Shown one piece after another: positions 11,800-11,900 of a DNA stretch of 64,000 nt; positions within the stretch are counted from its first letter, which is position 1; each line of letters opens with the position of its first letter. The DNA is from Escherichia coli (GTDB lineage: Bacteria; Pseudomonadota; Gammaproteobacteria; Enterobacterales; Enterobacteriaceae), in the NCBI RefSeq assembly GCF_003334815.1, contig NZ_QOWO01000002.1; one strand, written 5' to 3'. The notes under the pieces were generated by a model, which saw nothing but the letters and a program-made list of their open reading frames with translations, had not been told where the DNA came from and did not search any database. Both the position numbers and the translations under genes were made by a program.

Positions 11800-11900
11800 G
11801 CCTGATGCGCTACGCTTATCAGGCCTACGTGAACTCTGCAATATATTGAATTTGCATGCTTTTGTAGGCCGGATAAGGCGTTTACGCCGCATCCGGCATT
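11800..11900. repeat. RIP/BIME-type element (REP - IHF-like core - REP) downstream of rhlE
   Basis: GCCTGATGCGCTACGCTTATCAGGCCTAC ... AATATATTGAAT ... TAGGCCGGATAAGGCG...CGCCGCATCCGGCA; ~90% identical copy at 37127-37227. Confidence 0.8.

Follow-up and report, generated by a model that had tools for sequence, protein, structure and literature searches.

BIME-1 repeats bordering the ybiA–ybiT block of Escherichia coli as IS621 targets and probable sites of IS621-linked rearrangement

The stretch of DNA analysed here (the window, 64 kb) is 99.97% identical to MG1655 820648–866000 and is therefore a K-12-like E. coli chromosome; subtraction of 820489 from an MG1655 position gives the window position. 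Two related repeats, copies A and B, are both located on the plus strand, 25,327 bp apart from start to start. Copy A (11777–11932) follows the rhlE stop codon (11745–11747) and faces the 3′ end of ybiA, whereas copy B (37105–37259) follows the ybiT stop codon (37064–37066) and faces the 3′ end of ybiU. Each copy is flanked by convergent genes, rhlE/ybiA and ybiT/ybiU, respectively. Outside these units of 155 nt, the surroundings of A and B are unrelated in sequence.

In an earlier note on this DNA, the two elements were described as ∼100 bp in size and ∼90% identical, lying downstream of rhlE and ybiT in the same orientation, 25 kb apart. Apart from the size, our alignments bear this description out. 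Segments 11800–11900 and 37127–37227 are identical at 89 of 101 positions without any gap; a repeat finder returned one 115-nt direct repeat (11786–11900 and 37113–37227) of 87% identity, and local alignment of 11777–11932 with 37105–37259 matched 136 of 158 positions (86%), with 5 gap positions. The longest unbroken matches between A and B are 30, 22 and 16 nt in length. The core of ∼100 bp is present, but the whole unit is ∼155 nt when the conserved flanks are included. The identity extends beyond the short REP cores; the note had named a limitation to these cores as the result that would speak against it.

Both copies share one layout, composed of the 5′ flank, a 30-nt Y REP, a 35-nt linker, an inverted 35-nt Z1 REP and the 3′ flank. 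The features of the two loci are:

11754–11774, plus strand: GC-rich hairpin ATGCCGGGC-TAT-GCCCGGCAT directly after the rhlE stop codon; locus-specific, outside the repeat, no T-run, paired in the predicted RNA fold
11777–11798, plus strand: 5′ flank motif of copy A, GGCTGATGAACAAACGCAAAAC; aligns with copy B and most family copies, partly complementary to the 3′ flank
11799–11828, plus strand: Y REP hairpin of copy A, TGCCTGATGCGCTACGCTTATCAGGCCTAC; 11800–11829 is a published Y REP query (PMC11208160); retained in the consensus fold
11818–11828, plus strand: IS621 target of copy A, ATCAGGCCTAC; exact pattern match, CT core at 11825–11826
11829–11863, plus strand: L linker of copy A, 35 nt; IHF-like core CAATATATTGAAT at 11839–11851
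11864–11898, minus strand: Z1 REP hairpin of copy A, inverted relative to the Y REP; its reverse complement is the published REP TGCCGGATGCGGCGTAAACGCCTTATCCGGCCTAC; retained in the consensus fold
11899–11932, plus strand: 3′ flank motif of copy A, ending in CACTTGTCAGCAATTTGAGAAC; defined by alignments
37075–37103, plus strand: GC-rich hairpin after the ybiT stop codon; locus-specific, outside the repeat, no T-run
37105–37125, plus strand: 5′ flank motif of copy B; defined by alignment
37126–37155, plus strand: Y REP of copy B; exact IS621 target at 37145–37155, CT core at 37152–37153
37156–37190, plus strand: L linker of copy B; IHF-like core at 37166–37178, within the small palindrome CCTGCA...TGCAGG
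37191–37225, minus strand: Z1 REP of copy B, inverted; retained in the consensus fold; EcoCyc REP79
37226–37259, plus strand: 3′ flank motif of copy B; defined by alignment

The GC-rich hairpins that precede copies A and B are unrelated.

Letter for letter, the Y and Z1 REPs of copy A are two of the three REP queries in PMC11208160; the labels Y and Z1 on those query sequences are our own assignment, made from sequence. Copy B differs from these REPs at one position in Y and at two positions in Z1, and its Z1 REP contains one stem mismatch, with CATCAGGCA in place of CATCCGGCA. EcoCyc REP79 (MG1655 857617–857714) corresponds to window 37128–37225. The linkers of A and B have the 16-mer CTGCAATATATTGAAT in common, and the linker core CAATATATTGAAT agrees with the IHF consensus YAANNNNTTGATW at 12 of 13 positions; with the strict consensus, pattern search gave no match at the linker core of either copy. 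The IHF-like AT core reported earlier between the two REP hairpins is present in both copies. In the cecR–rhlE spacer (10171–10186), the IHF consensus is matched perfectly twice, on opposite strands and with overlap, within AATCAAATGATTGATT. On the minus strand, the Rfam family RF02751 ES036 (CssrF) matches 11821–11863 with 43.3 bits and 37148–37190 with 41.6 bits, compared to a gathering threshold of 37.6. These positions suggest that the ES036 family coincides with the BIME-1 linker; a match over the linkers does not imply that an sRNA is made there.

In BIME-1 elements, a single y REP and a single z1 REP flank a long L linker, which is well conserved and often carries an IHF site; the elements occur as single copies (PMC3333891; PMC2817692). 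Copies A and B have the same layout, without material difference. Two inverted REPs (Y and Z1) were found in each, the linker is 35 nt in both and carries the shared 16-mer and the IHF-like core, and one unit without tandem repetition is present at each of three loci in the window, of which A and B lie between convergent genes and the third, copy C, is 3′ of glnQ. The naming as RIP/BIME in the earlier note was right. BIME-1 is ∼100 nt in size, compared to ∼155 nt for A and B, owing to the conserved flanks. These flanks may correspond to the external ‘A/B’ motifs described in older publications. BIME-1, RIP (repetitive IHF-binding palindromic element) and RIB reportedly go back to Oppenheim et al. 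in 1993, Boccard and Prentki in 1993 and Bachellier et al. in 1994. The earlier note overlooked copy C and one REP cluster, for which the features are:

25113–25243, minus strand: copy C (EcoCyc REP78), 3′ of glnQ; ∼82% identical to A and to B, with a diverged linker
25212–25222, minus strand: exact IS621 target of copy C, found by pattern search
17048–17180, no strand: REP cluster M (EcoCyc REP77), BIME-2-like; Rfam naRNA4, 78.4 bits
17096–17106, minus strand: IS621 target of cluster M; exact match in the inverted Y REP of the cluster

Like copies A and B, BIME-2 elements and tandem REP clusters (REP325/naRNA4) are extragenic and contain the same Y REP. Different from A and B, which possess Z1, a long linker and a single unit, BIME-2 elements possess Z2 REPs and short linkers without IHF site, and are arranged in tandem. 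The features of gyrase-binding BIME-2 (Y plus Z2, short linkers, tandem copies) are absent from A and B. BIME-1 copies also resemble MITEs and REPINs in their nested palindrome with partly complementary ends and in their presence or absence between strains and species. However, they lack clear terminal inverted repeats of fixed sequence. Two pairs of filled and empty sites were found. Copy C is missing from strain 97-3250, and the filled site is bordered by a 7-nt direct repeat, TATTAAG. In E. albertii (L009, 9610–9765), one extra BIME-1 copy is present in the ybiR–ldtB spacer, which lacks it in the window (∼34294); this copy is bounded by a ∼20-nt imperfect repeat of the local terminator hairpin, AGGCGGATTATGAGTCCGCCT. 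Insertion and deletion both fit the two pairs, as flanking repeats of 7 and ∼20 nt could equally mark deletions. Four BIME-1-like units are arranged head to tail at ∼178-nt spacing in another E. albertii segment (L026, 1240–1927), which is unusual for a single-copy family.

Each of the 5,426 complete E. coli genomes contains the BIME-1 family, with ∼40 or more places per genome. Among the matches listed, the linker 16-mer clusters at no fewer than 20 loci in E. albertii, at least 6 in a second E. coli-named genome and at least 6 in Pseudocitrobacter faecalis; the other listed 16-mer matches are mostly chance single hits in unrelated phyla, and the set is a sample of the family, not a taxonomic survey. 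As sequence features, copies A and B are known elements and add nothing new. We hold it to be very likely that the two are ordinary, already catalogued members of BIME-1 (RIP/RIB) and, jointly with this, that the IS621-linked account of rearrangement given below is correct.

Could A and B be a specific pair of recent common origin, for example left over from, or bordering, a local segmental duplication or a composite element? The two are on the same strand, the similarity reaches into the flanks, and their 5′ flanks are 86% identical, which corresponds to the 98th percentile among family pairs. We compared them with a family sample of 38 full-length copies from four genomes (the window, E. albertii, the second E. 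coli-named genome and P. faecalis), taken from among the matches listed; as these were picked by the exact linker 16-mer, the sample is biased towards conserved linkers. Over the 100-nt core, the median pairwise identity of the 38 copies is 83% (interquartile range 80–87%), and the A–B identity of 87% stands only at the 73rd percentile. Within this sample, copy A is nearer to its E. albertii orthologue L012 (94%), to L090 and to the Pseudocitrobacter copy L122 than to copy B, and for copy B, ten relatives are closer than copy A. Orthologues of A and of B are present in E. albertii, indicating that A and B predate E. coli, and the sequence beyond the 155-nt units is unrelated. Judged from these comparisons, the likeness of A and B appears to be at family level, with no sign of local duplication; on the identity distribution of the 38 copies, a special A–B pair was rejected, and we regard it as extremely improbable.

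Owing to the location of A and B between convergent genes, transcripts from both sides would end in or at the repeat. The predicted RNA folds are strong, with energies of −69.3 kcal/mol for copy A (z −4.6) and −93.5 kcal/mol for copy B (z −9.4), and the family consensus fold keeps both local REP hairpins. With a covariation term of −0.23, the base pairs hardly vary, so covariation is uninformative on the hairpins. No canonical intrinsic terminator was found in the rhlE–ybiA or ybiT–ybiU intergenic region, including at the GC-rich hairpins. In the literature, REPs are described as terminators whose action depends on context and as stabilisers of 3′ ends; where they lie between convergent genes, the two genes show higher expression. 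A preprint supplement names REP77, REP78 (copy C) and REP79 (copy B), each of which overlaps a mapped Rho-dependent termination region. As taken from this family literature, hairpins at the 3′ end of the RNA would slow 3′ exonucleases and would aid Rho-dependent termination in both directions. The suggested stabilisation of mRNA 3′ ends by copies A and B is plausible, with which the position, the predicted folds and the absence of intrinsic terminators fit.

At the DNA level, BIME-1 linkers bind IHF (PMC3333891; PMC2817692), and the linkers of A and B would be expected to do the same; IHF binding at these two linkers is plausible as a family property. REPs are not mentioned in the IHF ChIP-seq paper PMC3333857. 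For gyrase, cleavage is enriched in BIME-2, not in BIME-1, and cleavage sites are slightly depleted at IHF sites (PMC6379681; PMC2817692). The suggestion that A and B bind DNA gyrase is doubtful, as such binding is documented mainly for BIME-2 and both copies are BIME-1.

The natural target of IS621 is ATCAGGCCTAC (PMC11208160). Four exact targets are present in the window, compared to a chance expectation of 0.01; those of copies A and B are on the plus strand, and those of copy C and of the cluster at 17.1 kb are on the minus strand. No IS621 is present in this 64-kb window. As for the IS621 target described in REPs (Choi et al. 2003; Durrant et al. 2024), the exact 11-bp site, the CT core and natural insertions at the core were all found; the target belongs to the Y REP rather than to the BIME-1 unit as a whole. 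IS621 (1,277 nt plus CT) is inserted exactly at CT 11825–11826 in the Y REP of copy A in strains 5444 and CEA224S, and in strain CFSAN029787 it is inserted at CT 37152–37153 in copy B. The natural insertions carry CT on both sides of IS621. The junction formed by ybiT, the left half of copy B and IS621 is present in 1,057 of the 5,426 complete E. coli genomes. For copy A, the flanks are >900 bp apart in ∼241 genomes, and in one strain an IS110-family element is located in the rhlE–ybiA spacer. Compared over 1,277 nt, the IS621 copies of WEC, AR_0019, CFSAN029787, CEA224S and 5444 have the same sequence. No gene of this region is named in the supplements of Durrant et al., and our search of the literature on IS621 and inversion or rearrangement in Shiga-toxin-producing E. 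coli found no paper that mentions IS621.

To the earlier note, the two repeats were potential substrates for rare deletion or duplication of the intervening 25 kb. Joints that direct exchange would leave were searched for in 5,426 complete E. coli genomes with queries composed of 400 bp, the repeat and 400 bp, which cannot join flanks across a 1.28-kb IS. With these 400-bp flanks, neither the direct A–B deletion joint (rhlE, repeat, ybiU side) nor the direct tandem duplication joint (ybiT, repeat, ybiA side) was found in any genome (0/5,426 each), and the direct inversion joints A–C and C–B were likewise absent (0/5,426 each). When the deletion and duplication queries were repeated with 2-kb flanks, IS621-bearing joints were detected. 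In two of the 5,426 genomes, WEC (GCF_027286085.1) and AR_0019 (GCF_002796445.1), rhlE is joined to ybiU with one IS621 at the joint. The left endpoint is window 11826, in the CT core of copy A, in both; the right side resumes at 37152, in the CT core of copy B, in WEC, and the alignment of AR_0019 resumes at 37163. At this joint, the segment of 25.3 kb that begins with ybiA and ends with ybiT is missing, including dinG, fiu, glnHPQ, dps, ompX, mntR, ybiT and others. To our knowledge, none of the lost genes is essential. No duplication of the interval was found, also with the 2-kb flanks, as the matching assemblies have each flank only once. The exact interval is thus deleted in two genomes, as the note had proposed, but the duplication did not appear, and with IS621 at the joint a repeat–repeat mechanism is not borne out.

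Over 11.4 kb of flank, 65 differences separate WEC from AR_0019, which indicates different lineages. The deletion has therefore probably occurred recurrently in separate lineages; instead of recurring, the deletion allele may have been transferred between them. It could also be argued that both deletions are artefacts of an assembly that merged two IS621 copies lying 25 kb from each other, since the joint is exactly what the collapse of two direct 1.28-kb repeats would give. However, the same joint is present in two assemblies of different lineages, both deposited as complete genomes. Moreover, both ends of the block are missing in 2 of the 5,426 genomes and its middle in 3; these counts, which are not tied to named strains, are consistent with true loss of the block. 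We assign only a slight chance to the artefact. A genome with plain IS621 insertions in copies A and B at once, from which the deletion would presumably descend, was not seen among those examined.

Using the duplication-type query, a second joint was detected, in which ybiT and the left half of copy B are followed by IS621, the right half of copy A and ybiA. It is present in 97-3250 (two assemblies), 10_253 and O111:H11 88-19539; in these four assemblies of three strains, each flank is present only once. In the map of the 97-3250 type, the sub-blocks ybiA–ybiE and ybiJ–ybiT are both inverted in place, and each inversion breakpoint falls at the CT core of copy A, of the 17.1-kb cluster or of copy B, with the cluster breakpoints at 17098/17109 in L134 and L136. 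The gene maps of 88-19539 and 97-3250 are identical, with 4 differences in 41 kb. In 2010C_3902, ybiA–ybiE alone is inverted; one IS621 is located at the new ybiA/ybiJ joint and a second one, in opposite orientation, in copy B. Exchange between these two inverted IS621 copies would give exactly the 97-3250 arrangement, and 2010C_3902 is an intermediate of a two-step inversion series. In total, the inversions are carried by four strains (five assemblies), and the series occurs in Shiga-toxin-producing strains. As to the strains with rearrangement breakpoints at the repeats that the earlier note had advised looking for, such strains exist for deletion (two genomes) and for inversion (four strains), but in each of them IS621 is present at one joint or more.

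The rhlE/ybiE joint of 2010C_3902 and 97-3250 contains no IS. Its sequence includes CGCTTATCAGTATCTACAAAATCC, with CAGTATCT where CAGGCCT was expected; in L134 (28605–28612) and L136 (∼1447–1454) it reads CGCTTATCAGTATCTAC, so that the last 5–8 nt of the IS621 right end replace GCCT. The IS621 beside the right half of copy A keeps a complete right end despite this residue. No simple model accounts for the right-end letters; a former IS copy may have been deleted through 3 nt of microhomology, or an off-register event of the recombinase may have taken place.

The most likely route is that two IS621 landings were followed by homologous recombination between the IS copies. In the first step, IS621 would land in two REP targets; in the second, recombination between the 1.28-kb copies would produce a deletion when they are direct and an inversion when they are inverted. 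The repeats themselves, by their sequence, appear to be poor recombination substrates, with one 30-bp unbroken match and ∼13% divergence. About 30 bp is close to the minimal length for recombination by the RecBCD pathway, and a divergence of ∼13% works against exchange. REP-mediated duplications were reportedly observed in Salmonella by Shyamala et al. in 1990, and RecA-dependent exchange within the REP or the linker could in principle delete, duplicate or invert the interval here, given that a 30-bp perfect match exists and that all breakpoints found fall inside these REPs. Those breakpoints, however, are exactly at the IS621 CT core instead of being scattered over the 30-bp match, IS621 or a piece of IS621 is at every joint, and the IS-free joints for deletion, duplication, inversion A–C and inversion C–B number 0 in 5,426 genomes. 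We consider such direct exchange very unlikely.

The rearrangements could also have been catalysed directly by the bridge-RNA recombinase of IS621, acting on one integrated IS end and one distant REP target. Every breakpoint is at the recombinase CT core in an exact target, and excision and inversion are possible for this recombinase with its sites on one molecule (PMC11208160). The IS-less rhlE/ybiE joint, with its right-end nucleotides CAGTATCT, also points to the recombinase, as homologous recombination does not explain it. However, homologous recombination between IS copies placed at those cores gives an identical joint, and for the deletion the two processes leave the same product. The second inversion, from 2010C_3902 to the 97-3250 type, took place between two complete inverted IS copies, as predicted by homologous recombination, and a natural donor site is present in the excised circle alone (PMC11208160). 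We regard direct catalysis as unlikely, and favour two landings followed by homologous recombination. More speculative, and in our judgement quite unlikely, is the idea that the four IS621 targets make the rhlE–ybiU block a naturally re-arrangeable cassette, in which at least some events were made by the recombinase and not by RecA, with the CGCTTATCAGTATCTAC joint as their trace.

The natural, IS621-linked deletion and inversion series is a modest and checkable addition. It corrects the picture of how such repeats shape genomes, in that they act as landing sites of IS621, while direct repeat–repeat recombination was not seen in 5,426 complete genomes. It also provides a natural example of structural variation that follows from the target choice of a bridge-RNA recombinase, and the rearranged strains are ready material for the question of RecA versus recombinase.

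Other plasticity was observed at the same loci. In O157:H7 F8092B (L125, 1875–2482), an AT-rich espX2 island directly after the rhlE stop codon replaces the hairpin, copy A and ybiA. In O157:H7 (L128), a single hairpin is left of copy B after a 73-nt deletion between ATCAGGC repeats. In strain 1438 and E. albertii, ybiA is truncated and copy A is kept. The ybiU gene (window 37227–38731) is missing from E. albertii (L009) and from the E. coli type strain ATCC 11775 (L129); in E. albertii, the gap begins on its left side where copy B ends. In AR_0019 (L131, 6831–8090), one IS3 is located inside ybiU. IS1 elements were seen near ybiO in H48 and within the glnH–ompX stretch in H171 and H172.
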